Shown here: in pieces, positions 27,419 to 58,303 of the stretch | How the letters are laid out: each line of letters begins with the position of its first letter | Position numbering within the stretch: the stretch's first letter is position 1 | NCBI GenBank assembly: GCA_963842945.1 | Contig: CAWJIM010000016.1 | Span: 1 to 64,000 of the forward strand | Direction: 5' to 3' | DNA: 64,000 nt | Source of the DNA: an uncultured Gemmatimonadales bacterium | GTDB lineage: Bacteria > Gemmatimonadota > Gemmatimonadetes > Gemmatimonadales > GWC2-71-9 | Notes under the pieces: model-generated | What the model saw: only the letters and a program-made list of their open reading frames with translations | Databases searched by the model: none | Told to the model about the DNA's origin: nothing | Program-made: the position numbers and the translations under genes

Positions 27419-27472
27419 CCAAGAACAGTTCTCACTCCCTTCAGAATTTCTTAATAGAGAATACTCCAGATT
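27419..27472 (+). promoter_or_regulatory. 11-bp direct-repeat regulon box + -10
   Basis: CCAAG-N4-GTTCT-N6-CTTCA-N6-CTTAA-N12-CAGATT. Confidence 0.55.
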
Positions 27473-27505
27473 GGCCGGAGCAAAGTCCCCCGCTCTGGAG
27501 CCCTC

Positions 27506-27649
27506 ATGTACTCTGATTTCGGCAGCCCAGCAGACCCGGTCTGGCAGAACTCGGTGACCTGGTTGCTGTTCTGGCTACTTATGGCGGCGGTGGTCTGGTT
27601 CATCGTCAACCGATCCGATAAGGGCCCTCGCGAGGGACAGGACCAGTGA
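27506..27649 (+). CDS. 47-aa single-TM small protein (not in ORF track)
   Basis: GGAG RBS; MYSDFGSPADPVWQNSVTWLLFWLLMAAVVWFIVNRSDKGPREGQDQ*; TGA overlaps the next GTG (GTGA coupling). Confidence 0.7.
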   Translation: MYSDFGSPADPVWQNSVTWLLFWLLMAAVVWFIVNRSDKGPREGQDQ

Positions 27650-28176
27650 GCCCCAGAACGCTCAGCCTCTTGGCACTAGCTGCGACTCTGTCCTGCCACC
27701 CGCCCACATACGGCGACCCGGTACCCGTCGAGGGAAGCCAGGAAGCGATCTCGGCGATAGCGGGGGATTGGAGCGGCCAGTACCGGAGCAAGGATGCCGG
27801 CCGGCATGGAGTCATCCGCTTCGTCATGCCTGAACGCGCGGACACTGGATTCGGGGAAGTGGAGATCACCTTCTCCCCTGCACTCGCATCGGCGGCTGCC
27901 GGTGCAGCTGTAGATCCAAAGATCGATAAGGATGTCGATCGGCTCGACCCGGAGCCCTGTCCATTCCTCAGCATCAAGGTCGTACGGATCGAAAAGAATG
28001 CGGTGCGCGGAACCCTGGCCCCCTACTGGGACCCCGATTGCGAATGCCGCACCCAAACGGTTTTCGAGGGCAAGATCTCGGGCAATCGGATCGAGGGAAC
28101 GTTCAGCTCCAGGAGACAGTCGGCTGAACGTCCGGTCTTCACCGGTAAATGGCAAGTCGAGCGGGTCCGATCCTAG
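27646..28176 (+). CDS. hypothetical beta-rich lipoprotein
   Basis: TLS-C lipobox; AGDWSGQY, YWDPDCEC. Confidence 0.7.
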   Translation: MSPRTLSLLALAATLSCHPPTYGDPVPVEGSQEAISAIAGDWSGQYRSKDAGRHGVIRFVMPERADTGFGEVEITFSPALASAAAGAAVDPKIDKDVDRLDPEPCPFLSIKVVRIEKNAVRGTLAPYWDPDCECRTQTVFEGKISGNRIEGTFSSRRQSAERPVFTGKWQVERVRS

Positions 28177-28191
28177 GAGGAACAACAAGTC

Positions 28192-28933
28192 ATGACACGC
28201 GTCCTTCACCGTACCCGAGATCTCATTGGAGCAGGCGCTGCAACCGCGGCCCTGTTCGGCACCGGCTTGATCGCGCTGAACTGGTTGCGCTATGGCAACA
28301 CTCACCCGAAGCGCGGCCGTCCCGATCGACTCCTCGATCACTTCATGCCCTTTTATGAGGTCCGGGAGTATCACGAGATCAGGGTAGCTGCTCCGGCAGA
28401 CCTCACTCTGGCCGTGGCCCGGGAGCTAGACATGCAAAGCTCCGGCCTGGTGCGCGCCATCTTCAAGGGACGGGAGCTGCTCATGGGTGCAGCTCCAGGC
28501 GAGCGCCGGCAGCCGCAGAGCCTTCTCCCCGAGGTCCTGGCGCTGGGATGGCGAATTCTAGCCGAGGAGCCGGGACGAGAGCTGGTGCTGGGCGCAGTCA
28601 CGCAGCCTTGGAAAGCCGACGTCAAGTTCCGAAGCCTTGCTCCCGAGGAATTCGCCCAGTTTCAGCAGCCGGGATACGCCAAGATCGCCTGGACCATGGG
28701 GGTTGAAGCCGCCGGGCCAGACAAGCTCGATCTTCCGCACGGAAACCCGGGTGGCAACTACCGACAGCGATTCCCGCCGGCGCTTCCGCCGATATTGGTC
28801 CATGGTGTCTCCCGGTGTGGTGCTGATCCGGCGTGAGATGCTGCGGTTGGTCCGAGCCGAAGCTGGCAGACGACACCGGTCGACCACTCTCGGCGCCACT
28901 CTGCCCAGCTCCAGCAGCAGCACTGCTTACTAA
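28192..28933 (+). CDS. hypothetical protein (frameshift ~28722)
   Basis: AGGAGG RBS; EPGRELVLG, GYAKIAW, then TETRV..TD..SRRRFRRYW in the shifted frame. Confidence 0.7.
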
Positions 28934-29556: not shown

Positions 29557-29597
29557 CATCAGAGCCTCGCAGACCAGGCGTGGCGGAGCTTGTCACC

Positions 29598-31847: not shown

Positions 31848-34549
31848 ATGCGAAAGTCCCCAGCTCAGCCGACACCGGCTCAGGGCGAGCCACTGTGGCA
31901 CGCGCTCCCGTCTCACGCGGTGCTGGAACAGCTCGGTTCCGGCTCCCTCGGTCTAACCGAGGCAGAGGCCGCCGAGCGGTTGGTACAATTCGGCCGCAAC
32001 ATCTTTCGGATTGCCCGTCCCCGCTCCGCCTGGTCGATCCTCGTCGCCCAATTCCGCAGCGTCATGGTGGTTCTCCTGTTGGTTGCGGGGGCCGTGGCCC
32101 TGGTCTCAAGAGACCTGCTCGATGCCGGCGCGATCCTCGCCGTGCTGATCCTGAACGTCGCCATCGGCTTTGTGACCGAGCTCAGGGCGCATCGCGCGGT
32201 CGAGGCGCTCCTCGAGCTCGAGGTGACCCATGCCCGGGCCGTGCGCGATGGCCGAGTGCGGGAGCTGGACGCGCGCGATCTGGTTCCGGGGGATGTGATC
32301 GAGATCGAGACCGGGCAGATGGTCCCCGCCGACGCCAGGCTGCTTCAGGCCGCCGAGCTCCGCACGGTGGAGGCGTCACTCACCGGCGAGCCGCTGCCGA
32401 TCGATAAGCGGGCCGAGGCGGTACTCGATGCTGAAGTGCCGCTGGCCGAGCGCACGACGATGCTGTACAAAGCCACTCCGGTAGTGGCGGGCCGGGGCCG
32501 CGCTGTCATCGTGGCGACCGGGATGATGACGGAGGTCGGACGTATCGGCGAGCTGGTCAGCGGAATCGCCGAGAAGCGAACGCCACTCGAGCGCCGGTTG
32601 GACACACTGGGACGGCGCCTGGTCGCGGTCGCGGTGGGAGTGGCCATCCTGGTGATCTGGCTGGGATACCTCCAGGGCCTGTCACCCAAGGAGCTGTTCC
32701 AGACCGGGGTGGCGCTCGCGGTCGCGGCGGTGCCGGAAGGATTGCCGGTCGTCGGCACCATTGCCATGGCAGTTGGCGTACGCCGCATGGCTCGACGGCG
32801 GGCGTTGATGCGGCATCTCCCCGCGGTGGAAACGCTCGGCTCGGCCACCATCATTTGCACCGACAAGACGGGGACTCTGACCGCGGGCGAGATGACCGTG
32901 ACCATCGTCCGCCTGGACGACCGCGAGATCGAGGTGCGAGGATCCGGCTACTCGCCTCAGGGTGACTTCCTGCATCTGGGTACCCGAATCGATCCGCGGG
33001 GAGAGCCTCGGCTTGCGGCTGTCCTGCGGATCTGCGCCCTGACCAGCCGGGGAGACGTCGCCGAGCGCAACGGCGTCTGGGCTGCAGTGGGTGACCCGAC
33101 GGAGGCTGCGCTGGCCACGCTCGCGCGCAAGGCCGGGCTCGACCGCGACGCCCTGCTCACGAGAGCTGCCCGAGTCGGGCGAGCTGCCGTTCAGTAGTCA
33201 GCGCATGCTGATGGCGACATTTCACCGCTCCCCGTCGGGCGTGCTCATTGCGGTAAAGGGTGCTCCGGCCCGGGTTCTTCAGCTGAGCACCCGGGCTCTC
33301 GCAGAGACCGGTAGCCGGGAGCTGAACGAAGCCGAGCGCCGCCGCCTGCTGGAACTCAACCGCGAACTGGCCGGCCGCGGACTTCGGGTACTCGCCTTAG
33401 CTCAGAGAGATGGATCGGGGCCGGCAGATCGGGAGATCCAGGATCTCACCTGGATCGGCTTCGTGGGTATGACCGATCCGCCGGCTCCTGGCGTCAGGGA
33501 GACCATCGCCACCTTTCGGCGGGCAGGAATACGCACGGTGATGTTGACCGGCGACCAACGACTCACGGCCGAGCGCGTCGCTACCGATCTCGGCCTGAGC
33601 CAGGCTGACGACGTGATACTCGAGGGGCACGAGGTGGACCGGCTCTCGGATGCTGCGCTTCGGACGGCAACCCGGCACGCGGTCGGGTACAGCCGGGTGA
33701 GCCCGGAGGCTAAACTCCGCATCATCAGCGCCTATCAGGCCGGGGGCGATACCGTCGCCATGCTGGGAGATGGGGTGAACGATGCCGCAGCGCTGAAAAA
33801 GGCCGATATCGGTGTGGCCATGGGGCAGCGGGGAACCGACATGGCCAAGGAGGCATCCGATCTCATCCTGGAGGACGACCGATTCCAGACCATTGCGGCT
33901 GCGGTCGAGGAAGGCAGGGTAATATTCGACAACATTCGAAAGTTCGTCTTCTATCTGTTCAGCTGTAACCTGGGCGAGATCCTGGTGCTGCTCGGAGCTG
34001 GAGTTGCAGGACTTCCGCCGCCGTTGCTGCCGCTTCAGATCCTCTGGCTCAATCTGCTGACCGACACCGTGCCGGCCCTGTCGCTGGCGGTCGAGCCAGG
34101 CGAACCGGGACTCATGGATCAGCCGCCCCGCAACCCTGGGGAGGCCATCCTGTCTCCTCGCCTGACCCGCTCCATCATCGGTTACGGTCTGCTCATCAGC
34201 CTCTGTACTCTCGGCGCATACTGGTGGGCTCTCACCCGGTTTCCCCACGATCAGGCGCGGGCCACGACAGTGGCGTTCATGACCCTTGCATTCGCGCAGA
34301 TCCTGCACCTCGGCAACGCCCGGAGTGCTCTTCCGGTGCTCGCGCCGCTCCAGGTGGTGGCCAATCGGTATGCGCTCGCCGCGGCTTGGCCTGACCGCCG
34401 CACTGCAGGCGTTGACGCTTAAGCTCGAGCCGCTGGCGCGGGTGCTCCGGGTCGAGCCGATCGGGGGCGAAGGGTGGCTCGTGGTGATCGGGTTTGCGCT
34501 GATCCCGGCTCTGGCGGGGCAGCTCATCAAGACCATCAGGGCGCAGTGA
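31848..34549 (+). CDS. type IIA cation-transporting P-type ATPase (frameshifts ~33160, ~34390)
   Basis: LTGEP, PEGL, DKTGTLT, KGAP, DPP, GDGVND, LWLNLLTD. Confidence 0.9.
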
Positions 34550-34561
34550 TGTCGCTTCGGT

Positions 34562-35785
34562 TCACATGGCTCCCACGATACGAACAGGACTGAGGCGCCT
34601 CTCTGTCGTGCCATCGCCGAGTTGGCCGCTGCGATTCTCCCCCCAGCAATAGCCGACACCGGCAGCGGTCGTCCCACAGCTGTGGGACGCGCCAGGGCTG
34701 AGCTGAACCAGGGCGAGACGGCCGGCCACCGAAACCGGAGTCGATTGCTGCAGAGTGGTACCATCGCCAAGCAGTCCACCGGTTCCCCAGCAGTAGATGC
34801 GGTGCAGAATGGTCTCGCCGCAGGTGAATGGGTTAAAGGACCCACCTGCGCCGACGCTCTCGAACGACAGCCCTCCCACAACGGCTACCGGCCAGAGGCG
34901 GACGCGGAGGTAGGTCTTGCCGTTGCCCAGCGCGCCCCATCGGTTGCTTCCCCAGCAGTACGCTCTAGCCGCGGTAGAGACCGCGCAGGTGTGCAGGTTC
35001 CCCGCTGATACCTGCCGAAACTTCAGGGTTCCAGCGGCGACCCGGACTGGACTGAAATGCCCCACTCTGCTGCTGTCCCCCAGCTGACCGTAATAGTTCC
35101 GTCCCCAGCAGTAGAGTTGCCGGGAGATAGCGAGACCGCAGGTATGTTGTCCGCCTGCACTCAACTGAAGCCAGCGCCGCCCGCCGAACACGGGAACGGG
35201 GGTCAAGCGATCGGTCGTCGTGCGATCGCCAATCTGTCCGGAGGAGTTATTTCCCCAGCAGTACGCCAGACTGTCGTAATACCCAATGGCGCACGCGTGA
35301 TGTCCGCCGGCGACGACTTGCCGGAATCGGAGCGCGCTTGCCACCGGCGTCGGTGTCAGCCGGTCCTGAGTAGTACCGTCGCCCAATTGCCCAGAATTTG
35401 CGCCCCAGCAGTGGACTCGAAATCCGGTTCCCAAGCCACAGGAGAACTCGTTGCCGGCGCTCACACTGCGAAATCTGACGGTCCCGACGACGAGCTCCGG
35501 CGTCGGTTGAGGGTCCCAACTCGATGTACCATTGCCAAGCTGCCCCCGCGCATTGGAACCCCAGCAGTAGGCCAGGTCTTCCTGGGTTACCCCACAGGTG
35601 TGATCGTAGTCCGCAAGCAAGCCCCGGCCCGAGCTGACCTCTCGAAACACCAGTGCGGCGGCCGACCCCAGGCTCGGGCTGGAGGGTTCGGCTACCGGAG
35701 CGGTAGGCGCGTCATTCGTACTCTGACAGCCGGTCGCTGCCAGCAGCGCCAGGGAACCCAGAGCCAGAATTGAAGGCTTGCGCAC
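34562..35785 (-). CDS. RCC1-repeat beta-propeller lipoprotein
   Basis: GAGGTG RBS; ATG-C lipobox; about 7 HTC...YCWG.N..GQLG.G repeats. Confidence 0.9.
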   Translation of the reverse strand: MRKPSILALGSLALLAATGCQSTNDAPTAPVAEPSSPSLGSAAALVFREVSSGRGLLADYDHTCGVTQEDLAYCWGSNARGQLGNGTSSWDPQPTPELVVGTVRFRSVSAGNEFSCGLGTGFRVHCWGANSGQLGDGTTQDRLTPTPVASALRFRQVVAGGHHACAIGYYDSLAYCWGNNSSGQIGDRTTTDRLTPVPVFGGRRWLQLSAGGQHTCGLAISRQLYCWGRNYYGQLGDSSRVGHFSPVRVAAGTLKFRQVSAGNLHTCAVSTAARAYCWGSNRWGALGNGKTYLRVRLWPVAVVGGLSFESVGAGGSFNPFTCGETILHRIYCWGTGGLLGDGTTLQQSTPVSVAGRLALVQLSPGASHSCGTTAAGVGYCWGENRSGQLGDGTTERRLSPVRIVGAM

Positions 35786-35863: not shown

Positions 35864-35956
35864 ATTCTAGGGCTGGGGCATGATGCGCTGGTGGAATTTT
35901 CGTGAGGATCTCTTCAGGCAAACCTCACTCCGGCGTCAGGGACCGGAGCGTATGCT
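35864..35956. promoter_or_regulatory. shared divergent regulon box for RCC1 (-) and Kelch (+) genes
   Basis: +: TGAGG-N4-CTTCA-N6-CCTCA-N6-CGTCA-N12-TATGCT; -: TGAAG-N4-CCTCA-N6-TTCCA-N6-CATCA-N11-TAGAAT. Confidence 0.7.
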
Positions 35957-36008
35957 GGGGCACGCTTCACAGGGATGCGGACGAGATCAGCACCGTCAGG
36001 AGGTTGGT

Positions 36009-36600
36009 ATGAGAAGACATTCAGCTGCTGCTCTTCTGGGACTCGGCTGCCTGCTGCTGGCAGGCTGTTCCGATCAGACTGCTCCATCCGGGATGCGGAG
36101 CGATGCCGGTCCGGACCTCGCGGTTACCCATAACACCTGGATCACCCGGAAGGACATGTGGAATACCGAGCGGACCGATTTCGCGACCGCCACGGTGCCC
36201 AATGCGGCCGGCCAGTCGGTGGTGTATGTGATCGGGGGCCGCGGCGCGTCGAACGTGGGGCTCACCAGTGTCATGGCGTATAACGTCGCCACCAACACCT
36301 GGACCCTGAAGAGCGCCCCTCCCCTGGCCTCGGTACGCGATGAGCGGAGCCGGTGTGATCAACGGCAAGATCTACATAACAGGGGGGTACCCGTACGGAT
36401 ATTCCAGTCCTCGGACGCTGATGTATGATCCCGCCAAGAACACTTGGGCCGAGAAGAGCCGCATGCCGGACGTGGAAGATCTGCAGGCCGGTGGTACAGG
36501 GGTGACCGGGGTCATCAATGGCAAGCTCTACGTGGTAACAGAGGGACGGTGCACTGATACGCGGCCCGACTATGACGAGAACGTTGTCCGTGATGGGTGA
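36009..36600 (+). pseudogene. Kelch-repeat lipoprotein, frameshifted (~36330) and 3'-truncated
   Basis: LAG-C lipobox; NAAGQSVVYVIGG, AYNVATNTW, GVINGKIY; ends about half-way along its paralog at 49823-50914. Confidence 0.7.
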
Positions 36601-38733: not shown

Positions 38734-39102
38734 TTATCTAGAGTCATGATGTTCGGCATGTGCGCTATCGTCCCGATCCGACGGTGCCATCCGGGGTCCA
38801 CCCATCATGTGCTCCGAGTGCATCCGCTCCATCATCTGCATCATATGCGACCGCATCTGCTTGCGTTGGGCGACCAGCTCGTTGATCACCGCCGCCATGG
38901 CCTCGACTTTCTTTTGTCCGGTAGCACGATTCATCTCGCCCACCAGCCGGTCCATCCGGGCATCGGCCGCCTGGACCTGCTGCATCATCCTCTCATGGTT
39001 CATCATCATGGCGCTGTCCCGATGCGGAACCGGCTGTTGAGCGGATACCGCGACCGGAGATAGCGTGGCGGCCAGCAGAAAAATTCCAATGTGGCGAATC
39101 AT
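38734..39102 (-). CDS. periplasmic Met/His-rich helical protein (putative Cu-binding)
   Basis: AGGAG RBS; signal peptide; MMMNHERMM, MRSHMMQMMERMHSEHMM, HAEHH. Confidence 0.75.
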   Translation of the reverse strand: MIRHIGIFLLAATLSPVAVSAQQPVPHRDSAMMMNHERMMQQVQAADARMDRLVGEMNRATGQKKVEAMAAVINELVAQRKQMRSHMMQMMERMHSEHMMGGPRMAPSDRDDSAHAEHHDSR

Positions 39103-39162
39103 GGGTTCAGCTCCTGTATCGAGTGTACAGCATCAGCATTCTTTCGGCCAAGCTCACCCTGC

Positions 39163-41620
39163 TCAGCACTCATCCGCTCCGGCGGCAATCCTGTACGCTA
39201 CCCTGGCGAGCGAGTCGGGATTGAGCGATATCGAATCGATCCCGATCCGCACCAGATAATCGGCGAAGTCGGGGTAGTCGCTCGGCGCCTGGCCGCAGAT
39301 CCCGACCGGCCGCCCGTTCTGGTGGGCTGCGGCGATGACCATCTGGATCAGCCGCTTCACCCCGGGATCCCGCTCGTCGAACACTTCGCGGAGCAGCTCG
39401 GAGTCGCGGTCCACGCCGAGCGCCAGCTGGGTGAGATCGTTGGACCCGATGGAGAAGCCATCGAAAAGCTGGCTGAACTCGGCGGCAAGAATGACGTTGT
39501 TGGGGATCTCGCACATGACGTAGACCTGCAGGCCGTTCTGTCCCCGAATGAGGCCGTTCTCCGCCATCACCCGAAGCACCCGGCGGCCTTCCTCCACCGT
39601 CCGGCAGAACGGAATCATCACCTTGACGTTGGTCAGGCCCATCTCCTCCCTGACCCGCCAGATCGCGGCGCACTCCAGGGCGAAGGCCTCCCGATAGCGA
39701 TCGTCGTAATAGCGGGAGGCGCCGCGGAAGCCGATCATCGGGTTGGACTCCACCGGCTCGAAGTCCCTGCCGCCCAGCAGCCCGGCGTACTCGTTGGTCT
39801 TGAAGTCGGAGAAGCGCACTATCACGGGCCGGGGATAGAAGGCGGCCGCTATCTGGGCCACGCCGCTGGCCAGGCGGCTCACGAAGAACTCGGATGCCGG
39901 ATGAATGTTTGCCACCCGCCTCCGGATCTCGTCAGCCGCGGCCTCGTCGGTCACCCGCTCCAGGTGGAGAAGCGCCATCGGGTGGACCCCGATCCAGCTC
40001 GACACCACGAACTCGATCCGGACCAGCCCCACGCCGTCGCTGGGAAGTTGGGCCAGATGGAACGCCCGCTCCGGATTGGCCAGGTTGAGCATCAGAGGCA
40101 CCGCCGGCTTCGGCAGAGTCGCCGGGTCGATCTCCTGCCGGTCGAAGGCAACTTTCCCCGCGTACACTCTTCCGTCCTCGCCTTCGGCACAGGAGATGGT
40201 GACCTCCTGGCCGTCGCGGAGTACCTGGGTGCCGCGCACGGTGCCCACCACGCAGGGGATTCCCAGCTCGCGGGCCACAATCGCCGCGTGACAGGTGCGC
40301 CCTCCCTCGTCGGTGACCACGGCAGCGGCCTGCTTGAGGACCGGCTCCCAGTCCGGGTCAGTCATCGGCGCCACCAGCACCTCGCCGGGCTGGAACTGGC
40401 TGAGACCTTCGGTGGACCGGATCACTCTCACGCGGCCGGTGGCGACGCTGTTCCCCACTGCCTGACCCGTCAGCAGGATTTCGGCTTCCCCCTGCCTCCG
40501 GTAGAATGCCAGGCTGGGAGCAGTGGAGCGGGAGTGCACCGTCTCCGGCCTGGCCTGGAGGATGAACAGCTGGCCGTCGCGGCCATCCCGGGCCCACTCG
40601 ATATCCATCGGAGTAGGGCGTCCCGCCCGCTCGGAGTAGTGGTCCTCGATCTCGAGCGCCCACTGGGCCAGGGTGAGAACGTCGTCGTCGCCCAAAACCG
40701 CGGCCTGGCGCTCCCGCCGAGGCACCCGCACTTCTCGCACCGTCTTCCCGCTCTCCTCGGCGTAGATCAGTTTCATCTCTTTATCAGCAATCTCCCGGCG
40801 GATGATGGAGCGGTGCCCCTGCCGCAGGGTCGGCTTGTGCACCCAGAACTCGTCGGGGCGAACCCTGCCCTGCACCACCGTCTCGCCCAGGCCCCAGGCA
40901 CCGGTGATGAGCACCACGTCGCGAAATCCGCTCTCGGTATCCAGGGTGAAGATCACGCCGGCCGAGTCCAGGTCGCTCCGGACCATCTTCTGCACGCCGA
41001 CCGATAGCCCCACGTCGCGGTGCTCGATTCCCCGCTCGGCGCGATACACGATGGCCCGCTCGGTAAAGAGAGAAGCCATGCAACCCCGGACCGCCCGGTC
41101 GAGCGCTTCGAAGCCGCGGATGTTGAGATAGGTCTCCTGTTGCCCCGCGAAAGAAGCCGTAGGCAGATCCTCGGCGGTCGCGCTGGAACGGACTGCTACG
41201 TCGGTAGCCTCCTCGGTGTAATCCGTGGACAAGCGACTGTAGGCGGCCCGAAGTTGCTCGGCCACCTCGCTCGGCAGCGGCGCAGTGGCTATCCGGTTCC
41301 TGATTGACCGTGCAGTCCCGGCCAGGGCGGCGACATCATGCAGGTCTACACCCGCCAGCTCGGTGTAGATGCTCGAGTCAAGGCCGGCGGCTCGAAGGTG
41401 CAGGCGGAAGGCGTCAGCAGTGACGGCAAAGCCGTTGGGGACTCGGATTCCCTTGGGTCCTCAGTGCGCGGATCATTTCTCCCAGCGAGGCATTCTTCCC
41501 CCCGACCCGCGGAAGATCTTCCAGGTTGATCTCGCTGAAGGGCAGGACGTACTGGGGCGAAGCCGGTGGAGAGGGTGACGCCCAGGACGGGCGAGGAACG
41601 CTGGCGGTGGCATTGCTCAT
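39163..41620 (-). CDS. ppsA: phosphoenolpyruvate synthase (several frameshifts in the 5' 350 nt)
   Basis: VGGKNASLGE, VRSSATAEDLP.ASFAGQQ, QARPETV, GGRTCHAAI, GSNDLTQ, GICGQAP. Confidence 0.93.
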
Positions 41621-41659
41621 GAGTGGGCCTCGAGATTCATGGTGGTTTCAACTCCTGAC

Positions 41660-41774
41660 AATCTGCGAGGCGCGATATGAAGGAACCATGAAGCGCAGAG
41701 GAATCCGGGATCAGCCATTCGGAAGAAGTCTTCACGGTGGGTTCAGTCCGGATTCAGGAGCCGGGAGCAAACTT
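41660..41774. promoter_or_regulatory. back-to-back regulon boxes for ppsA (-) and CBS (+)
   Basis: -: TGATC-N4-ATTCC-N6-CTTCA-N6-CTTCA-N12-CAGATT; +: GGAAG-N4-CTTCA-N6-GTTCA-N6-ATTCA-N11-CAAACT. Confidence 0.72.
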
Positions 41775-41799
41775 CAGGCAACCTTCTCCCGGAGGCACC

Positions 41800-42201: not shown

Positions 42202-42365
42202 GTCAGGGCACGATGCTCAAATCTAGCCTGTCTCGTTCGGGCCTCATCGGGCACGTCATCATGCACGGCGCCGCGGTCTTCCACGGGATAGAGAGCACTC
42301 CGCAGCTCCCGCCGCACTTCCCCCATTCAATGAGATAGGGGCGCGGCTCTAACCGAACCTGATCG

Positions 42366-42419
42366 TGAAGCAATCTTCATCGCGAGTTCACGCTGGCAGC
42401 GGGAAGCGGTCGCCATCTT
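42366..42419 (+). promoter_or_regulatory. regulon box upstream of nosZ
   Basis: TGAAG-caat-CTTCA-N6-GTTCA; CATCTT starts 39 nt after the first CTTCA, as at the other sites; third repeat degenerate. Confidence 0.7.
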
Positions 42420-42455
42420 CGGGAGTAGGTGATGCGTATTCCACAAGGAGAGAAG

Positions 42456-44445
42456 ATGAGTTCGATCCGCCATACCGCCCTCGCGGCCGCGCTGGTTGCT
42501 ATCGGAATTTCCGGCTGTAGTCACTCCGGGTCAGGCCGGGTAGGCGACACCGGGGATGCCGCCAAGCAGGTGTACGTAGGCCCCGGCAAATACGATGAGT
42601 TCTATGCCTTCATGTCGGGCGGCTTCGACGGGCAGGTCGGGGTGTACGGCCTGCCGTCGGGCCGGCTGCTCAAGCACGTGCCGGTGTTTTCCCAGAGTGC
42701 GGAGAACGGCTGGGGCTACAGCGAGCAGACCAAGCCGATGCTGGCCACCAGCTACGGGTTCGTGCCCTGGGACGATGCCCACCATCCCCAGCTCTCCCAG
42801 ACCAAGGGCATTGTTGATGGACGATGGCTCTTCATCAACGGCAACAACACTCCGCGCATCGCCCGGCTCGACCTGACCCGCTTCGAGACCGAGGAGATTC
42901 TCGAGATTCCCAACTCGGCCGGCAATCACAGCTCGCCGTTCGTCACCGAGAACAGTGAATACGTCGTGGCGGGAACGCGATTCAGCGTGCCATCGCCGCA
43001 GCGGGACGTGTCGATCGAGGAATACAAGGACGCCTTCAGCGGGGTGCTCAGCTTCGTGCGGGTGGACAGCGCCACCGGTCACATGCAGCTGGCCTTCCAG
43101 ATGAGACTCCCGGCCTTCGACTACGACTTGTCCCACTCGGGCAAGGGCCCGTCGCACGGCTGGTCGTTCTTCACCAGCTACAACAGCGAAGAGGGCAACT
43201 CCAAGCTCGAGGTCAGCGCCTCGCAGAAGGACAAGGACTACATCGCGGCGGTCAACTGGAGACGAGCGGAAGAATGTGTCGCCCAGAACAAGGCTAAGAC
43301 CGAACCGGCCCGCTACGCCCACAACCTGATGGGCGAGGACGGTATCGCCCGGACCGAGTGGGGCTCCAGCGTAACGATGCTGACTCCGGCCGGCTGCCCC
43401 GGGATGGTGTACTATCTCCCCACTCCCAAGTCGCCCCACGGGGTCGACGTGGATCCCACCGGCGAGCTCATCGTGGCCGGCGGCAAGCTCGCGACGGTGA
43501 TCCCGGTGCACTCCTTCAGCAAGATGCAGAAGGCCATCGCGGACCGCGCCTTCACCGGCGAGGTGCACGGAATCCCGGTGCTCAAGTACGAGGCGGTGGT
43601 GGCGGGAGAGGTGCAGAACCCGGGCCTGGGCCCCTTGCACACCGAGTTCGACGGCAAGGGAAACGCCTACACCTCGATGTTCCTCGCGTCCGAGATCGTG
43701 AAGTGGAGCCTCAAGGACTTCAAGGTGCTGGATCGGGCGCCCGACCTACTACTCGATCGGCCACCTGATGATCCCCGGAGGGGACAGCCGCAAGCCCTGG
43801 GGCAAGTACGTCCTGGCGCTGAACAAGATCACCAAGGACCGCTATCTCCCCACCGGTCCGGAGCTGGCCCAATCGGCCCAGCTGTACGACATCAGCGGCA
43901 GCCGGATGAAGCTGCTGCTGGATTTCCCGACCATCGGCGAGCCGCACTACGCGCAGGCCTTGCCCGCCGAGCTGATCCGCGAACGGCAGCTCAAAATGTA
44001 CTCGCTTAAGGACAACAAGGATCCGTTCGCTGTGCGCTCCGAGATGAAGACCAGAGTGGACCGGAAGGGCAACGTGGTTGACGTGCTATTGACGTCGGTG
44101 CGGAGCCACTTCATGCCCGACAAGATCGAAGGAATTCGCCTGGGCGACACCGTCTACTTCCATGTGACCAACCTGGAGCAGGACTGGGACGTACCTCACG
44201 GCTTCGCCATCACCGGAGCAAACAACTCCGAGCTGCTGATGATGCCGGGACAGACCCGTACCCTGATGTGGGTGCCCCAGCGGGTCGGCGTCTTCCCCTT
44301 CTACTGCACCGACTTCTGCTCGGCGCTGCACCAGGAGATGCAGGGGTATGTGCGGGTCTCGCCCCGCGGCTCGAAGGTGGAGCTGGCCTGGAACAGCCCG
44401 ACCTACAAGGGGTGGAGAGGTCGAGGAACTGAATCCGCGGAATGA
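42456..44445 (+). CDS. nosZ: clade II (Sec/lipoprotein) nitrous-oxide reductase (frameshift ~43742; extreme C-terminus uncertain)
   Basis: AAGGAG RBS; ISG-C lipobox, no RR motif; CuZ His motifs DAHH, GNHS, SPHG, GPLH, IGH, EPH; CuA motif CTDFCSALHQEM. Confidence 0.95.
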
Positions 44446-44486
44446 GGAGCATGAGCGGCGGGAGCACGGGGGAGGCTGGACGCCTA

Positions 44487-49822: not shown

Positions 49823-50914
49823 CTACGGGGTGTACTGCAGGTTGTTCCCCGGCACCGTTCCGCCGACCAGCTCGATCCGCGGCTGGCCCTTGAGCAGCAC
49901 CGTCGTAGCGGCGAGACCGGTGCGGGGGGCCGGCAGCGAGGCCACCGGAGTCCACAGGTCCGTGGCTGGATCGTATACGATGGTCTTGTCGATGGTCTCG
50001 GATCCGCCAAGAGCGGGGTTGTACCGTCTGCCACCGATGACGTACAGCTTGCCTCCCAGCACCGCCGTGGCTGCGCCGGGACGGGCAAATCCCAGGGCGT
50101 TCCTTGGCGTCCACTGGTTGGTGGCGGGATCATAGACGCTGAATCTCGAGTCCTCCCCATATCCGGCCATCACATAGAACTTCCCCGCAATGACCCCGCC
50201 CGCGTACGGTGAATAGGAAAACTCCGTAAAGGGAGAGGGCAGCGTGGTCCACCGGTCGGTGACCGGGTTGTACCGGAAAAAGAAGGGAGCTAGATGCTCG
50301 CTGCATCCCTCAGAGAAAGGGTCCCCCGGAAAGGAGGTGAAGCACGCTGTGACCACGTACAGCTTACCGCTGATCACGCCGGTCACGCCGCCGGCACCCA
50401 CCCTGTAGCGATCGCCCCCCTGGGTAAGTGGGATCTCCGGCATATCCCGCTTCCGGGTCCAGGCATTGGTAGCGGGATCGTACATATAGAGGGCGCTGGT
50501 CACAAAGTCATAGCGGGTTTCAAAGTACCCGCCGGAGACGTAAATCCTTCCGTTGATAACGCCGGCACCATTGGAACCGGCCAGAGGAACCGGCAGCGAA
50601 CGCCGGAAGGTCCAGGTATTGGTCGCGACGTTATACGCCGTCACCTTGCTGAGCGGGATCCGACTGGAGTTGCGGCCGCCGATGGCGTACACCATTGATT
50701 GCCCCGCGGCATTGGTCACCGTGGCCGCCGCCAGCTCGGTCCGGCTCGCGGGCATGTTGGCCAGGGTGGTCCAGCTGCCGGCCAGGACCTTCTCGGGGCC
50801 GGCCGGCGCAGGCTGAGCCGCCCCGGTGGCCTCGGTGGGCGCATCGTTGCCGCAGGCGGCAAGCCAAAAGGTGCTGAGCACCAGCGCGCCGGGCAGCAGT
50901 GAAGGGTATCTCAT
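49823..50914 (-). CDS. Kelch-repeat lipoprotein
   Basis: LAA-C lipobox; multiple YxxGG...YDPATNxW blades. Confidence 0.9.
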   Translation of the reverse strand: MRYPSLLPGALVLSTFWLAACGNDAPTEATGAAQPAPAGPEKVLAGSWTTLANMPASRTELAAATVTNAAGQSMVYAIGGRNSSRIPLSKVTAYNVATNTWTFRRSLPVPLAGSNGAGVINGRIYVSGGYFETRYDFVTSALYMYDPATNAWTRKRDMPEIPLTQGGDRYRVGAGGVTGVISGKLYVVTACFTSFPGDPFSEGCSEHLAPFFFRYNPVTDRWTTLPSPFTEFSYSPYAGGVIAGKFYVMAGYGEDSRFSVYDPATNQWTPRNALGFARPGAATAVLGGKLYVIGGRRYNPALGGSETIDKTIVYDPATDLWTPVASLPAPRTGLAATTVLLKGQPRIELVGGTVPGNNLQYTP

Positions 50915-50953: not shown

Positions 50954-51007
50954 ACTCTACAACCAAGGTCTGGAGAGGACGGTGAGATCGGGGTGAAGAA
51001 GTCTTAA
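50954..51007 (-). promoter_or_regulatory. regulon box upstream of Kelch-CPBP operon
   Basis: TTAAG-N4-CTTCA-N6-TCTCA-N6-TCTCC-N12-TAGAGT on the minus strand. Confidence 0.65.
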
Positions 51008-51643
51008 CCCAACCGGAAGGGCGGATACTCGATCCGTCGTCAGAAGAAAGGCGTAGGCGTTTACCCTGAGCCCGTAGCGCAATACCCCGACGACGAAGTC
51101 GAAGAGTCCCGGTGGATACCGGCCGGTCAGCAGGATGGCAAACCAGGCCAGGATGACTGCGACTACCGCCGCCACGCCCAGGAAACAAAGAACGATGTAG
51201 TGCGGAATGGCCAGAAACCATTTGACCAGCGGAAGCCACCGACTCAGCTCCGTCGCGTCGGGATACGGTATCCAGACGTGCACCCCTTGCTCTTCGTCGG
51301 TCGAGGGATATTCGTCCCGCAGGAGCGCGAGGTAAGCCGCCACCCGGGTACTGAACCTGGTCAGCTCCAGGTTCCAGTCAAACCACCACCGGGGATATTT
51401 CTGCCGGAACAGCAACATCAGCATGGTCGGGAGGACCACAATTCCCCCGATGACGAAGACCGCTTGGTCCGACTGGTGATGCACGACCGGTCCGGACAAG
51501 AGACCCAGGATGACCCCGATGGGGATCACCAGGAAAATCCGGAAAAACGTCGTTTTCCAGTTCAGCTCTCGATCGGGATACTCGACCTCCAGCTCTGCCG
51601 GATAACCGTCAGTACCCTGGCTAATGAGCGGAATTCCATTCAT
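51004..51643 (-). CDS. DUF4389 membrane protein (last codons frameshifted; likely ends YPPFRLG*)
   Basis: Two repeats: KYPRWWFD...RDEYP and LAIPHYIVL...TGRYP..LFDF. Confidence 0.85.
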
Positions 51644-51671
51644 TGTGCCCCCCTGGTGTGGACTGATCCAC

Positions 51672-51726
51672 AAGCTTGGGCGAAGCGGCTGAAGAAACCG
51701 TGAAGTGCGGCAGAAAGCCGGCTTAA
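51672..51726 (-). promoter_or_regulatory. regulon box upstream of DUF4389 (divergent from ackA)
   Basis: TTAAG-N5-TTTCT-N6-CTTCA-N6-CTTCA-N12-AAGCTT on the minus strand. Confidence 0.55.
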
Positions 51727-51743
51727 CGCCCGGACGAGGCTCC

Positions 51744-52817
51744 ATGGTCATTCTGGTGATCAACTGCGGCAGCACCACGCTCAAGTACCGGCTCTTCCAG
51801 GCCAATGGCGCCGAGCTGACCGCGGTGGCGTCCGGTGCCGCGGAAATCAGGCTGGGTTACCGGGAGGCTGTGGCCCGCACCCTCCAGTCCTTGCCGAAAG
51901 TACCAGAGGCGATTGCCCACAGGGTAGTGCACGGCGGGAACCGGCTGACCGGCGTGGTACAGGTGGATGTCGGGGTGCTGAACCAGTTGCGCGAGCTCGA
52001 CTCTCTCGCTCCACTGCACAACCGCCCAGCCCTGGAAGGGATTGAGGCCACGCTCGCGCTCGGAGTCCCACTCCTGGCCGCTTTCGACACTGCATTTCAC
52101 CGAACCCTGCCGGCTCGGGCCTGGCGTTATGCCGTTCCAGCCCCGGAGCAGGTGCGGCGTTACGGGTTTCACGGGTGGTCCCACCAATCGGTCATGGAGC
52201 AGTACGCCCAACTCTCCGGCCACCCCCACCCCACGATGATCAGCCTGCACCTGGGGAGTGGTTGCTCCGCCACTGCCATCGAGCGGGGCAGATCGGTGGA
52301 TACCTCGATGGGATTCACGCCCCTGGAAGGGCTCGTGATGGGCACGCGGCCAGGCGATTTGGACTCGGGGGTCCTAACCCATCTGATGGCACAGGGCATG
52401 ACCTTGAACCAGCTGCGGCACCTGCTCTACCACGAATCGGGCCTCAGGGCAATTGCCGGAACCGACGACATGCGTGAGCTGCTGGGGAGAAACGATGAGG
52501 CGGCGCTGCTCGCGGTTGAGATCTTCTGCTACCGGGTGCTCAAGTACGTGGGTGCCTACCTGGCCATTCTGGGGGGAGCCGAGGCAATCGTGTTTACCGG
52601 TGGGATCGGCGAGCACTCGCCCGAGATCCGCCGCCGGGTATGTGATGGACTCAAGTGGCTGGGACTCACGCTGGACCAGCAGGCGAACGGCCGCGGTAAT
52701 CGCCGGATCTCCACGGCGGCGTCCAGTCTCGGCGTGTTCGTCCTCCCGGCGGAGGAAGAACGGGTGATCGCGCGTGAGGCCTGCGCCGTCCTAAGGCGAG
52801 ACGGCGCGACGGGCTGA
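51744..52817 (+). CDS. ackA: acetate kinase
   Basis: NCGSTTLK, HRVVHGG, APLHN, FDTAFH, RRYGFHG.SH, HLGSG, TSMGFTPLEG, FTGGIGE. Confidence 0.95.
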   Translation: MVILVINCGSTTLKYRLFQANGAELTAVASGAAEIRLGYREAVARTLQSLPKVPEAIAHRVVHGGNRLTGVVQVDVGVLNQLRELDSLAPLHNRPALEGIEATLALGVPLLAAFDTAFHRTLPARAWRYAVPAPEQVRRYGFHGWSHQSVMEQYAQLSGHPHPTMISLHLGSGCSATAIERGRSVDTSMGFTPLEGLVMGTRPGDLDSGVLTHLMAQGMTLNQLRHLLYHESGLRAIAGTDDMRELLGRNDEAALLAVEIFCYRVLKYVGAYLAILGGAEAIVFTGGIGEHSPEIRRRVCDGLKWLGLTLDQQANGRGNRRISTAASSLGVFVLPAEEERVIAREACAVLRRDGATG

Positions 52818-53881: not shown

Positions 53882-54000
53882 AAGATGCCCGAGCCATCGT
53901 GAAGCCAGGATGAAGGACAGGCGAAGCTTTCCTGCAGGTGCCCAGGTGAAGACTCTTTCATGCCCGCTTCAGCCTCGGCTCAGCAGGTGTTTCCCAGATT
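53882..54000. promoter_or_regulatory. back-to-back regulon boxes for the phosphoesterase (-) and cheB (+)
   Basis: -: CTTCG-N6-CTTCA-N6-CTTCA-N12-CATCTT; +: TGAAG-N4-TTTCA-N6-CTTCA-N6-GCTCA-N12-CAGATT. Confidence 0.72.
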
Positions 54001-54006
54001 TGTACC

Positions 54007-54651
54007 ATGAAGCAGCCCATACGCCTGGTCACCATTGCCGCGTCCGCCGGAGGTATTCCCGCGCTCCGCGAGCTGCTGGCAGCACTACCGGCCGATTACC
54101 CGGCCAGCGTTGCCATTGTTCAGCACCGGACCGAGCACAAGCCGGACCTCCTGTCTGGGGTACTTGCCCGCCGCTCCAAGCTGCCCGTGAGCCAGGTGCA
54201 GCCGGGTGAGCCGATTCTACCAGGCCATGTCTACCTGGCACCCGCTCGCGAGCACCTGCTGATCCTGGCCGACGAAACCTTTGCCACTACCGACGGCAGG
54301 AAGATCCACCATCTGCACTCTTCGGCCGACCCCCTGTTCGAGACGGCGGCCCAGGTCTTCGGTTCCGCCATGATAGCTGTGGTGCTCACCGGGGGTGACT
54401 CTGACGCCACCGATGGGGTGCAGGCCGTCAAGTCAGCCGGCGGAACAGTAATCGTGCAAGACGAGGCAACATCCCAGTGTTTCTCGATGCCCGCCTCGGC
54501 AATCAGGACCGGGGCAGTCGACTACATCCTGCCGTTGGGCGACATCGGACCGCGCGGTAGTGCGCCTGACCCGGCGCAGCAGAAATCACCAGGATATAAC
54601 TGCCGGCGCAGTAGGAGGCATCAGATGACTGCAGCTTCGGCGCGACAGTGA
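54007..54651 (+). CDS. cheB: stand-alone CheB methylesterase domain protein (3' end probably frameshifted)
   Basis: ASAGG, VQH, VVLTG..SDATDG, VQDEATS...MP.SAI; no receiver domain. Confidence 0.85.
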   Translation: MKQPIRLVTIAASAGGIPALRELLAALPADYPASVAIVQHRTEHKPDLLSGVLARRSKLPVSQVQPGEPILPGHVYLAPAREHLLILADETFATTDGRKIHHLHSSADPLFETAAQVFGSAMIAVVLTGGDSDATDGVQAVKSAGGTVIVQDEATSQCFSMPASAIRTGAVDYILPLGDIGPRGSAPDPAQQKSPGYNCRRSRRHQMTAASARQ

Positions 54652-55440: not shown

Positions 55441-56079
55441 CTGGCAACCCTCCTGCTGGTGTGCGGCATCGTCTCTTCGCTGCTGTACGCCGCGATGCTG
55501 GCCGTTGTTCCGCTGCGGTGGGACGGGTACAGCTCTGCCGCTCAAACGGTCAGCGAGCTGTCCGCCATCGGCGCGCCGACCCGATCGCTCTGGGTGCCGC
55601 TCGGGATCCTGTGGACCCTGCTCTATGCCCTCTTCGGTTGGGGAGTCTGGCAGGCAGCGGGACGGAGCCGTTCTCTGCGGATTGCCGGAGCCGTCATCAT
55701 CGCGCATGGCGTGTTCGGAATCTTCTGGCCCCCGATGCACCTGCGCGGAACCCCGCCCTCGCTGACAGACACCCTGCACATCGTGTGGTCGATGGTGACC
55801 GTGCTGCTCATGGCGCTCGCGATTGGCTTCGCGGCTGCGGCGCTGGGCAAGCGATTCCGTCTGTATTCCATCCTGACGCTGCTGGTCTTCATCCCGTTCG
55901 GGATTCTGACCGGGATGGATGGCCCCCGGATCGCGGCCAATCTGCCCACACCGATGATCGGCGTCTGGGAGCGGATCAACATCGGGGTCTGGTTGCTCTG
56001 GGTCGTGGTGCTGGCCGTCGCCCTGCTGCGGCGATGCGCGCTCCGGGGATGCGACCGGCGTGCTCCGGTGAGGCCATAA
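55441..56079 (+). CDS. DUF998 membrane protein (start uncertain)
   Basis: GYSSAAQTVSELSAIGAP, DTLH, GVWERI. Confidence 0.8.
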   Translation: MATLLLVCGIVSSLLYAAMLAVVPLRWDGYSSAAQTVSELSAIGAPTRSLWVPLGILWTLLYALFGWGVWQAAGRSRSLRIAGAVIIAHGVFGIFWPPMHLRGTPPSLTDTLHIVWSMVTVLLMALAIGFAAAALGKRFRLYSILTLLVFIPFGILTGMDGPRIAANLPTPMIGVWERINIGVWLLWVVVLAVALLRRCALRGCDRRAPVRP

Positions 56080-57272
56080 CGCAGGTTCATGGGCTGGTCG
56101 CCCCGGGCTTCGAGGAGGTCCGCGCCGAGTTCGCGCGCAACTTCGCCGAGCGGGGGGAAATCGGCGCCGCCGTCGCAGCGTACTGGCGGGGCGAGAAGGT
56201 GGTGGACCTGTGGGGCGGCCGCCGCACGCCCGAGGGCGACGCGCCGTGGAACGAGGACACCATGGTCGTCGTCATGTCCAGCACCAAGGGCCTCTCGGCC
56301 ATGACCCTCGCGGTGGCGAACGCGCGCGGCTGGATCGATTACGACGCGCCGGTCGCCCGGTACTGGCCCGAGTTCGCCCAGAACGGCAAGGCCGGCGTCA
56401 CCGTGCGCCAGCTGCTCGGCCATGAGGCCGGACTGGTCGTGCTGGACGAGCCGCTGACACTCGAGCGGTTGAACGATCTCGATGACGTAGCGCGTCTGCT
56501 AGCCCGGCAGAAGCCGGCCTGGCCGCCGGGCACCCGGCACGGGTATCACACGATGACGATCGGCCTGTGCATGCAGGAGCTGATCCGCCGGGTCGATCCC
56601 AGGCATCGCACGCTGGGGCGGTTCTTTCAGGAGGAGATCGCGGCTCCGCTGGGACTCGACTTCTACATCGGCCTTCCTCATGAGATCCCCGATGAGCGCC
56701 TGGCCAAGGTGAAACCGCTCTCTCGCGGGCGCGGCCTGCTGGCGCTGCGCTACACCCCGCCGGCCGTGACGTTGAAGATGATCATGCCGGGATCGCTGCT
56801 CCGCCGATCCTTTTCTGGCTTGAGTGTCGACCCCACCGCCCGGGCCTACCTCGATGTCGAGGTGCCCGCCGGGAATGGCGTGGGTACCGCGCGCGCGATC
56901 GCCCGAGCCTACTCCGCCTTCGCCGAAGGGGGCGCCGAGCTGGGCATCACGCCGGAAACGTTCGCTCGCATCACCGAGCCACCGGTGGTCGCCCGGCCCA
57001 AGGACGAGGTCATCGGCCTCCCGAGCTACTTCTCGCTGGGCTTCCTGCGCCCCGGGCCCGAGGTGGCGTTCGGCTCCAGCCAGCGCGCTTTCGGCTCGCC
57101 CGGTGCCGGCGGCTCCTTCGGGTTTGCCGATCCCGACGCGCGCCTGGGCTACGCCTATGTAATGAACAAACTGGACTTCTATCTGGTGGACGACCCGCGG
57201 GAGAAGGCGCTGCGCGATGCGGTGTACCGGGCCATTGCGCGAATCACCATCCGCTCGGAGAGGAGGCGGTGA
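56049..57272 (+). CDS. serine hydrolase (family VIII esterase/beta-lactamase-like); start uncertain
   Basis: SSTK, LLGHEAG, HGYH, GAGGSFGFADP. Confidence 0.88.
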   Translation: MRPACSGEAITQVHGLVAPGFEEVRAEFARNFAERGEIGAAVAAYWRGEKVVDLWGGRRTPEGDAPWNEDTMVVVMSSTKGLSAMTLAVANARGWIDYDAPVARYWPEFAQNGKAGVTVRQLLGHEAGLVVLDEPLTLERLNDLDDVARLLARQKPAWPPGTRHGYHTMTIGLCMQELIRRVDPRHRTLGRFFQEEIAAPLGLDFYIGLPHEIPDERLAKVKPLSRGRGLLALRYTPPAVTLKMIMPGSLLRRSFSGLSVDPTARAYLDVEVPAGNGVGTARAIARAYSAFAEGGAELGITPETFARITEPPVVARPKDEVIGLPSYFSLGFLRPGPEVAFGSSQRAFGSPGAGGSFGFADPDARLGYAYVMNKLDFYLVDDPREKALRDAVYRAIARITIRSERRR

Positions 57273-57339
57273 GCGGACCCGTGGCCGGATGCGAGTGGCG
57301 GTTTCCAGCGCGCTGTAGTCAGGCGGTCTCGCTTCTTCA

Positions 57340-58234
57340 TCATGGCCACAACCACGCGGCGCCTCGAACTCCGCTCGAGTCTCCATGCACGTTCAAGAGG
57401 ATACGGGTGGCCACCCGGTCGGAGAAGACGTAGCGAGGCAGGAGGACGGTAACTGCGGAGGTGAGGTCGGGGAGATTGGACATCCCGCCGCCGAGGACGA
57501 TTGCATCCGGATCCAGGATATTGGTCATCGCGGCCAGTGATCGGGCGAGCCGGTCCTCATATCTCCTGAGCGCGCCGATCGCATGGGCGTCGCCCTCGGC
57601 CGCCGCGCTCACGATGTCGCGGACCGGTCCTGCGCCTGCCGCTCAGAAGCGTATAGTCTCGTTCGAAGCCGGGCCCGGAAAGAAACGTCTCCACGCATCC
57701 GGTCTTGCCGCAGTAGCACGCCGATGCGGTGGAACGCTCCTCGTCGGTCATCCAGGGGAGCGGGTTGTGTCCCCACTCGCCGGCGATCTGGTTCGGCCCC
57801 TCGTGAATTCGCTGCCGCAGCGCAATCCCGCCGCCTACCCCAGTGCCCAGGATCACGCCGAACACGGTATCGAAACCCCGGCCCGCGCCGTCGATCGCCT
57901 CCGATAGCGTGAAGCAGTTGGCATCGTTGGCTACGCGAACTGGCCGGGAGAGTCGGGCCTCCAGGTCGGCCAGCAGCGGTCGACCGTTGAGCCAGGTGGA
58001 GTTCGCGTTCTTGACCAGACCGGTGGCGTGGCTGACGACCCCCGGGATTCCGATGCCGACTGAGCCGGGACGCCCCGCCTCACGCTCGATGTCGGCGACG
58101 AGGTCCGTGATCGCATCGATCGCCCCGGCATAGCTGCGTGGCGAGGCGACTCGGCGTGGCACTGCCAGGAGCGTGTCCGCCTTGAGGCCGATCCCTTCGA
58201 TCTTGGTGCCGCCCAGATCGATGCCGATCTGCAT
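57340..58234 (-). CDS. ROK family sugar kinase (fructokinase Mak-like; frameshift ~57625)
   Basis: DLGGTK, NDANC, GTGVGGG, GEWGH, CYCGKTGCVE, GDSSGVRGAAWL. Confidence 0.9.
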
Positions 58235-58249
58235 CTGTGCCATCAACAA

Positions 58250-58303
58250 TGAAGGATTCTTCATGGGCGGTTCCTCCCCACGTCATTCCTCCTATCAGAC
58301 ATT
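58250..58303 (+). promoter_or_regulatory. regulon box upstream of the metzincin-Kelch gene, abutting the ROK start region
   Basis: TGAAG-gatt-CTTCA-N6-GTTCC-N6-CGTCA-N12-GACATT. Confidence 0.68.

Follow-up and report, generated by a model that had tools for sequence, protein, structure and literature searches.

Which protein reads a promoter pattern that recurs at 11 promoters in one stretch of a Gemmatimonadales genome, including that of the nitrous oxide (N2O) reductase gene nosZ, probably of clade II? The stretch (hereafter the window) comprises positions 1-64,000 of contig C16 (CAWJIM010000016.1) from an uncultured soil Gemmatimonadales bacterium, whose assembly (GCA_963842945.1) has 4.30 Mb in 24 contigs with 65% G+C. 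Gemmatimonadota are a major soil N2O sink and are among the most abundant N2O-consuming soil phyla; to our knowledge, little has been described of the control of clade II nosZ. The original prediction, made from the window alone, held that the 11 promoters share one architecture and respond to one regulator of the OmpR/PhoB type. Here, we propose that the architecture is probably the operator of a self-regulating OmpR-family regulator, which would be paired with a soluble histidine kinase carrying a haem-type GAF domain like that of DosS and DosT. This degree of confidence applies to the assignment of the regulator, and the signal is assigned with less.

Architecture of the shared promoters

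The architecture consists of four 5-bp slots: an inverted TGAAG (S1), followed after 4 nt by CTTCA (S2) and then by S3 and S4 at 11-bp steps, with CTTCA / sTTCC / gTTCA as the consensus of the direct slots S2-S4. A -10 hexamer of the TAnnnT type begins 11-12 nt past the last slot, and the distance between repeat and hexamer is fixed at 12 or 23 nt. Slot centres lie near -58, -49, -38 and -27 if transcription starts about 7 nt past the -10; start positions were deduced from the -10 and from a conserved gap of 6-7 nt to ATG. No conserved -35 was present in an alignment of 74 orthologous promoters of the regulator described below, where the columns between slots 3 and 4 carry 0.02-0.28 bits. The site lies over, or in place of, the -35, and its spacing from the -10 is constant.

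All 11 promoters named by the original prediction were recovered in the sequence. Eight of them (-10 at 27467, 35951, 41665, 41768, 42414, 51678, 53887 and 53995) passed a strict rule that demands two adjacent slots with a score of at least 9/10, plus a [TC]AnnnT hexamer; the other three are weaker. The promoters are as follows.

27419..27472, + strand: promoter of a small open reading frame (ORF)/unknown genes (27646-28836) and OmpW; GTTCT 27428, CTTCA 27439, CTTAA 27450; -10 CAGATT 27467-27472; slot scores 2, 3, 5, 4; spacer 12
35864..35916, - strand: RCC1 promoter, weaker, failing the strict rule; palindrome 35903-35916 common with Kelch-1; CCTCA, TTCCA, CATCA; -10 TAGAAT 35869-35864; RCC1 Pfam match on 34562-35785 (-)
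35903..35956, + strand: Kelch-1 promoter; TGAGG 35903, CTTCA 35912, CCTCA 35923, CGTCA 35934; -10 TATGCT 35951-35956; Kelch Pfam matches on ORF 35880-36428
41660..41693, - strand: ppsA promoter, proximal-pair type; CTTCA 41693-41689, CTTCA 41682-41678; -10 CAGATT 41665-41660; ATG 19 nt on
41721..41773, + strand: promoter of the CBS-domain gene; GGAAG 41721, CTTCA 41730, GTTCA 41741, ATTCA 41752; -10 CAAACT 41768-41773
42366..42419, + strand: nosZ promoter; TGAAG 42366, CTTCA 42375, GTTCA 42386, fourth slot without match; -10 CATCTT 42414-42419
50954..51007, - strand: Kelch-2 promoter, weaker; TTAAG, CTTCA 50998-50994, TCTCA, TCTCC; -10 TAGAGT 50959-50954; Kelch Pfam match on 49823-50914 (-)
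51673..51705, - strand: DUF4389 promoter, proximal-pair type; CTTCA 51705-51701, CTTCA 51694-51690; -10 CAAGCT 51678-51673
53882..53926, - strand: metallophosphoesterase promoter; CTTCG, CTTCA 53915-53911, CTTCA 53904-53900; -10 CATCTT 53887-53882
53947..54009, + strand: promoter of the CheB-like methylesterase gene; TGAAG 53947, TTTCA 53956, CTTCA 53967, GCTCA 53978; -10 CAGATT 53995-54000; ATG 54007, leaderless geometry
58250..58303, + strand: promoter of an unknown gene (58372-59073, followed by a Kelch gene); perfect palindrome TGAAGGATTCTTCA 58250-58263, GTTCC 58270, CGTCA 58281; -10 GACATT 58298-58303

Slots are used in different combinations. The ppsA, DUF4389, phosphoesterase and universal stress protein (Usp) promoters have a strong S3 and S4, a proximal pair of direct repeats without palindrome that spans about -40 to -25, while nosZ uses the distal three slots (S1, S2 and S3) and the regulator's own promoter has all four. 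It had been expected that a first repeat would stand at a fixed distance from the -10. This geometry of the -10 held, but at ppsA, DUF4389 and the phosphoesterase gene the supposed first repeat is a weak match, and the strong repeats there are the promoter-proximal pair. Divergent pairs do share or mirror their repeats, as had been described (35903-35916, 41660-41774 and 53882-54000). Spacers and flanks differ at every site, and only the slots and the -10 are conserved.

An ATG follows 6-7 nt past the predicted -10 for the CheB-like gene (window 54007), the regulator (L001 5976) and a transketolase gene (L010 2149), and leaderless mRNAs seem to be common among the predicted targets.

Enrichment and coupling to the -10 element

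Enrichment of the pattern over background was confirmed by shuffles, control spacers and coupling to the -10. In the window, CTTCA-N6-STTCA has five matches versus 0.10 expected, a count reached in none of 100 shuffles, and TGAAG-N4-CTTCA with at most one mismatch has seven versus 0.87 expected. Genome-wide (4.30 Mb), 17 exact copies of CTTCA-N6-CTTCA were found. Twelve of these lie in uncalled DNA, which is an approximate label for what a rough home-made ORF caller left over in an assembly rich in frameshifts; control spacers (N2-N5 and N7-N11) gave 1-6 matches each in the same DNA, so that only the N6 spacer, corresponding to an 11-bp phase, is enriched there. Higher genome totals at N4, N7 and N10 reflect coding periodicity. 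Owing to the many split genes, two home-made gene callers reach no more than 72-78% of the genome, and since uncalled DNA is thus a rough label, weight was put on the spacing controls and on related genomes.

The decisive statistic is the coupling of the repeats to the -10. Among 82 uncalled pair matches (at most one mismatch), a [TC]AnnnT hexamer lies exactly 12 nt downstream in 13 and at 22-23 nt in 21, compared with a rate of 1-3% per offset among 289 control-spacer matches. Counts anchored on the hexamer reached 17 and 18 for spacer 12 and 6 and 10 for spacer 11; sixteen other spacers gave 0-9 each, about 3 on average. The inverted TGAAG was present exactly 9 nt ahead of the second slot in 12 of 29 candidates versus 0-1 at 11 other offsets. 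Altogether, 47 candidate promoters were identified genome-wide, about 35-40 of them above background. Eleven lie inside the 64-kb window and seven more in the next 11 kb; candidate sites are also present on 10 other contigs.

One identical string, CTTCAACCAACCTTCA, occurs once per genome within called coding sequence (G000, C23 63871; also G002, G009, G010, G011, G013 and G022). It probably belongs to a conserved gene and is hence a false positive of the simple repeat pattern.

An OmpR-family regulator that carries the site

Six full-length OmpR-type regulators are encoded in the genome, and only two of them, 93% identical to each other, carry the site; no candidate site was found near the other four. 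A gene of this family with the same box had been sought as the likely regulator, and two paralogues were thus found. The expectation of a single response regulator is supported as to the OmpR type but not as to the number.

C16 69278-69976, - strand: regulator copy 1, 5.3 kb past the end of the window; genes for a P-type ATPase, trehalose synthase and a Kelch protein come next, with a divergent Usp operon
C24 487704-488399, + strand: regulator copy 2, in the order Usp, GAF-kinase, regulator, multicopper oxidase

In the C24 cassette, sites precede the Usp gene, the regulator gene (here within the 3' end of the kinase gene) and the multicopper oxidase gene. Both regulator copies have the full four-slot site and the -10, and then ATG 6-7 nt later, i.e., a leaderless geometry. 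Receiver and DNA-binding domains were assigned by Pfam (Response_reg, 9.7e-30; Trans_reg_C, 4.1e-26), PF00486 being above its cut-off in both copies. The best solved relatives include PmrA/BasR (E 6e-42), and with the curated models of PhoB and PmrA the scores fall far short of the cut-offs.

Conservation in related genomes

We examined the closest 80 orthologues of the regulator among 185,579 species genomes (80-93% identity), all of which come from metagenome-assembled genomes of Gemmatimonadales or Gemmatimonadota, two of them labelled otherwise. TGAAG-N4-CTTCA (at least 8/10) is located at -59 to -63 from ATG in 74 of these 80 promoters and is perfect in 53, compared with 1.9% in shuffled upstream sequences. 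In the 74 promoters, invariant columns lie nowhere but in the four slots and the -10, to which the information content is limited; columns 9, 20 and 31 have conserved slots, and the gap between -10 and ATG is fixed. Over 471 kb of orthologue loci, strict sites pile up at two positions only, with 56 loci having one at the Usp promoter and 26 at that of the regulator. The GAF kinase gene is directly upstream in 76/80 loci, a P-type ATPase gene is downstream in 55/80 and divergent Usp genes are found in 56/80. The regulator, the kinase and the divergent Usp genes are a conserved cassette in Gemmatimonadales.

As a negative control, the palindrome was absent from all 17 regulators of 57-68% identity, none of which has the GAF kinase upstream, other kinases being found instead. 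An attempt to count every regulator passing E 1e-80 as an orthologue was discarded: those of 57-68% identity form a neighbouring subfamily, so the resulting tally of 122/301 overstates the orthologue range.

Within the genus, 19 genomes with the regulator contain 161 CTTCA-N6-CTTCA pairs versus 52 of the reversed pattern and 50 with an N8 spacer. Six genomes without the regulator have no such excess (19 pairs versus 20 reversed and 20 N8). That the repeat excess tracks the presence of the regulator is suggestive, these genomes being kin and not independent.

Individual predicted targets were also followed. When nosZ promoters of relatives were scanned, the site was kept in all five same-genus orthologues (79-88% identity) with differing flanks, and nosZ lies 1.5-5 kb from the regulator gene in G001, G007, G010, G011 and G013. 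Three nosZ genes of another family, in genomes without the regulator, have no site, and none was found within 1.5 kb of the nosZ-like genes (46-51% identity) of G020 and G004. The distant nosZ-like genes of G002, G016 and G003 have a site about 570 nt upstream, probably before the upstream gene. Sites are kept by orthologues of ppsA, CBS, Acg, Usp and Hsp20 genes in the relatives G024, G007 and G001; orthologous ppsA keeps its site in G024 and G001, and in G024 ppsA and CBS again form a divergent pair with sites.

The two sited regulators, the 74 of 80 orthologous promoters, the co-occurrence of regulator and repeats, the PhoB-like span and the lack of a -35 all fit an OmpR/PhoB-type activator encoded outside the window, as the original prediction had it.

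The GAF sensor kinase and its probable signal

The kinase is a soluble protein of 438 aa with one GAF domain, a HisKA (PF00512) H-box and HATPase_c. Residues 42-188 form the GAF domain, which aligns with the haem-binding GAF-A of Mycobacterium tuberculosis DosT (2vzw) with E 4e-42 and with that of DevS with E about 1e-33 (2w3d, E 3e-33). The motifs FPPHHPPM (proximal His) and FGNLYLT (distal Tyr) align with DosT/DevS; the proximal His is His147 in DosT and His149 in DosS, and the distal Tyr lies in the LYLT motif (PMC4082495). The kinase therefore likely senses oxygen (O2), nitric oxide (NO) or carbon monoxide (CO) through a DosS/DosT-like haem GAF domain, both the haem binding and the gas response being predicted by homology. 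Redox, copper, phosphate and envelope stress had been considered as signals before; copper, phosphate and envelope stress are not favoured by the present data.

Predicted target genes and proposed mechanism

Pfam and NCBIfam confirmed the window genes RCC1, several Kelch, ppsA, tandem-CBS, nosZ (probably Sec-type), DUF4389, metallophosphoesterase and CheB-like methylesterase. The two enzymes of N2O and phosphoenolpyruvate (PEP) metabolism are located as follows.

39163..41640, - strand: ppsA (PEP synthase or pyruvate phosphate dikinase (PPDK) type); Pfam PPDK_N, PEP-utilizers and PEP-utilizers_C; N-terminal part out of frame in the assembly
42429..44445, + strand: nosZ, probably clade II (Sec-type); two frames, 42429-44009 and 43768-44445; Pfam nos_propeller

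The nosZ product scores 578 bits with TIGR04246 (Sec-dependent) versus 210 with TIGR04244 (dependent on twin-arginine translocation, TAT). It misses the TIGR04246 cut-off of 625 owing to the frame change that divides the gene; the open frames in relatives have 684-738 aa.

Elsewhere in the genome, sites were found ahead of Usp genes in tandem (at three loci), a second CBS gene, two Acg/Rv3131-type nitroreductase genes, a Usp-NirK-like operon and genes for a multicopper oxidase, YceI, transketolase, aldehyde dehydrogenase, a protein of the OmpA family, further Kelch proteins and a stand-alone receiver accompanied by a kinase. The putative regulon is wider than had been noted and resembles the DosR/OsdR gene sets.

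In the mechanism that we propose, a fall in O2, or NO or CO on the haem, would cause the kinase to phosphorylate the regulator. Regulator dimers on the repeats would replace the -35 contact and recruit RNA polymerase, by analogy with PhoB and PmrA, and a second dimer may bind the distal slots, judging only by their layout. The regulator would raise its own leaderless transcript and co-induce nosZ, the NirK-like gene, Usp, CBS, Acg-type nitroreductase, Hsp20, ppsA, P-type ATPase and trehalose synthase genes, together with many Kelch/RCC1 beta-propeller genes. A broader hypothesis, which we consider to be evenly balanced, is that Gemmatimonadaceae independently built a DosR-like hypoxia/NO dormancy regulon, in which a haem GAF sensor was rewired to an OmpR regulator with a CTTCA operator that gates clade II nosZ and the NirK-like gene.

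If true, clade II N2O reduction in Gemmatimonadota would have its first proposed dedicated regulator. N2O reduction is predicted to be induced together with a dormancy-like stress programme when a fall in O2, or NO, is sensed by haem, which would bear on when soils consume N2O. The sequence pattern would become a testable circuit with a named kinase-regulator pair, a four-slot operator, predicted starts and a target list. It would also represent a non-orthologous replacement, in which a mycobacterial DosR-type sensor domain and a similar gene set are combined with another regulator family and another DNA motif. In open-access full text, no publication was found on the kinase-regulator pair, the motif or a nosZ regulator in Gemmatimonadota.

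Comparison with known systems

PhoB and PmrA/BasR have the same receiver and winged helix, and direct repeats about one helical turn apart replace the -35 in their promoters. According to PMC10570014, PhoB on pstS spans -25 to -41, the same span as the proximal pair here (about -40 to -25), and the PmrA box XTTAAY-N5-XTTAAY overlaps the -35, with a half-site in the same 11-bp phase and one base from CTTCA. Unlike in these systems, the half-site here is CTTCA, and up to four slots are present, of which the most distal is inverted. The regulator is partnered by a cytoplasmic kinase whose GAF domain is of the haem type, and its predicted targets have no connection with phosphate or lipid A.

DosR is of the NarL/LuxR type, and DosS has two tandem GAF domains and a HisKA_3-type core. 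DosS/DosT-DosR and OsdKR have a homologous sensor GAF domain, whose His and Tyr motifs are kept here, and as for DosR a Usp gene adjoins the regulator gene and autoregulation is predicted (here from the site at its own promoter). However, the regulator is of the OmpR type and the 438-aa kinase has one GAF domain and HisKA (PF00512), so that membership fails on architecture and regulator family; nosZ and the NirK-like gene are further targets that distinguish the set from those of DosR/OsdR. DevR/OsdR regulons include Usp genes, nitroreductases, a heat-shock protein and pyruvate phosphate dikinase, and the OsdR operator is a GGGnCn-type palindrome (PMC5069765). Gene content thus overlaps in Usp, Acg/Rv3131-type nitroreductases, a small heat-shock protein and a PPDK-type enzyme, whereas the operator here is a CTTCA repeat.

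In the CusR/CopR group, boxes can be inverted repeats. Unlike in that group, the partner kinase here is soluble and has no periplasmic metal-sensing part, and no cus/cop efflux genes are found in the cassette.

Evidence against the proposal and alternative explanations

Several observations weigh against the proposed regulator and signal. The inverted first slot is not predicted by a simple head-to-tail OmpR dimer, and the 5-N4-5 geometry is that of FNR/CRP sites. Three of the 11 sites in the window are weak: the repeats of RCC1 and Kelch-2 are degenerate, and the site at 58250 has a perfect palindrome but GACATT as its -10. About 8-12 of the 47 genome-wide candidates are expected by chance. 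The best curated family of both regulator copies is the heavy-metal CopR/CusR/SilR group (NCBIfam TIGR01387, which also covers HprR; 232.3 and 228.3 bits), although the scores are below the cut-off of 279.2 and membership fails on this score. Having one GAF domain with HisKA, unlike DosS/DosT, the kinase may differ in haem binding and gas response. Conservation within the genus is partly inherited through the shared ancestry of related genomes. The assembly is 87% complete with 6% contamination, and the two regulator copies could in principle stem from two strains; G004 and G007 likewise have two copies. Finally, binding, phosphotransfer, haem, induction and transcription starts are all deduced from sequence.

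Among the alternatives, the one that survives best retains the same OmpR-type regulator but lets the GAF domain of the kinase bind another ligand or report the redox or energy state, which would make the set a general stress or stationary-phase regulon. The single GAF domain on a HisKA core, the dependence of haem binding on sequence comparison, and the many targets that are general stress genes or of unknown function (Usp, Hsp20, trehalose synthase and Kelch proteins) are in line with it. On the other hand, the close match to DosT GAF-A retains both haem-pocket motifs, and the presence of nosZ, the NirK-like gene and Acg-type nitroreductases among the targets fits a low-O2 or NO cue. We regard this alternative as unlikely.

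It is still less probable that another factor, such as a CRP/FNR-type dimer, binds TGAAG-N4-CTTCA and that the response regulator is merely one of its targets. The palindrome has an FNR-like geometry, and exact copies stand at nosZ and at 58250. FNR, FixK or NnrR act, like the system proposed here, under low O2 or NO through a site upstream of the -10, with a 5-N4-5 palindrome. In clade I denitrifiers, nosZ is under the control of regulators of the FNR family (PMC5582078). However, they differ in regulator family and half-site, whereas direct repeats and sensing by a separate kinase characterize the present system. A palindrome-binding dimer does not explain the proximal-pair promoters of ppsA, DUF4389, phosphoesterase and Usp genes; moreover, the OmpR-type regulator is the only DNA-binding protein in the conserved cassette, and the repeat excess follows it within the genus.

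An alternative sigma promoter, or a promoter cassette that was duplicated and spread inside a genomic island, in either case lacking an activator of its own, could account for the strong clustering of sites and for an integrase fragment nearby, but is very improbable: the -10 is an ordinary TAnnnT hexamer, no sigma -35 element is arranged like these repeats, with one to three copies in direct orientation and another inverted, sites lie on 10 other contigs too, and they are not copies of one cassette because spacers and flanks differ at every site.

With these alternatives weighed, an OmpR-family regulator acting with the haem-GAF kinase remains the explanation that we prefer.

Genomic context and additional observations

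Many genes in the window are broken over two or three frames, including two P-type ATPase genes, ppsA, nosZ, nosD and the genes for acetate kinase and ROK kinase.

31848-34422, 36626-38677, 39163-41640, 42429-44445, 45043-46360, 51200-52817 and 57557-58264: split-gene stretches in the window

Such widespread splitting suggests either indel errors of the assembly or decay of an island. The ROK kinase ORF as called (58234-58264) begins inside the palindrome 58250-58263; the usual ROK N-terminus, MQIGIDLGGTK, lies about 30 nt further in, and the palindrome is probably intergenic. On the far side of the site-rich stretch, a phage-integrase-family fragment (C16 73367-74014; L001 9367-10014) lies between an Acg-type gene and a Kelch gene, which hints at present or past mobility of part of the region.

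A rhizosphere metatranscriptome (X1) holds 5% of the words of window 39000-46000, and it has contigs that agree with the window letter for letter in parts of ppsA (39203-39301), CBS (41977-42126) and nosZ (42468-42692). This is at most a hint that the three genes are present in the RNA library, as the contigs carry no start, strand or level and DNA carry-over is possible; the bin lacking cover over the promoters carries no information.

Behind the site at C21 71967, a stand-alone receiver is followed by a split histidine kinase (L002 4281-5801, equal to C21 72281-73801). Genes for an MtrC-like and other multihaem cytochromes were observed nearby (L002 16479-19805, equal to C21 84479-87805), close to the sited YceI gene.

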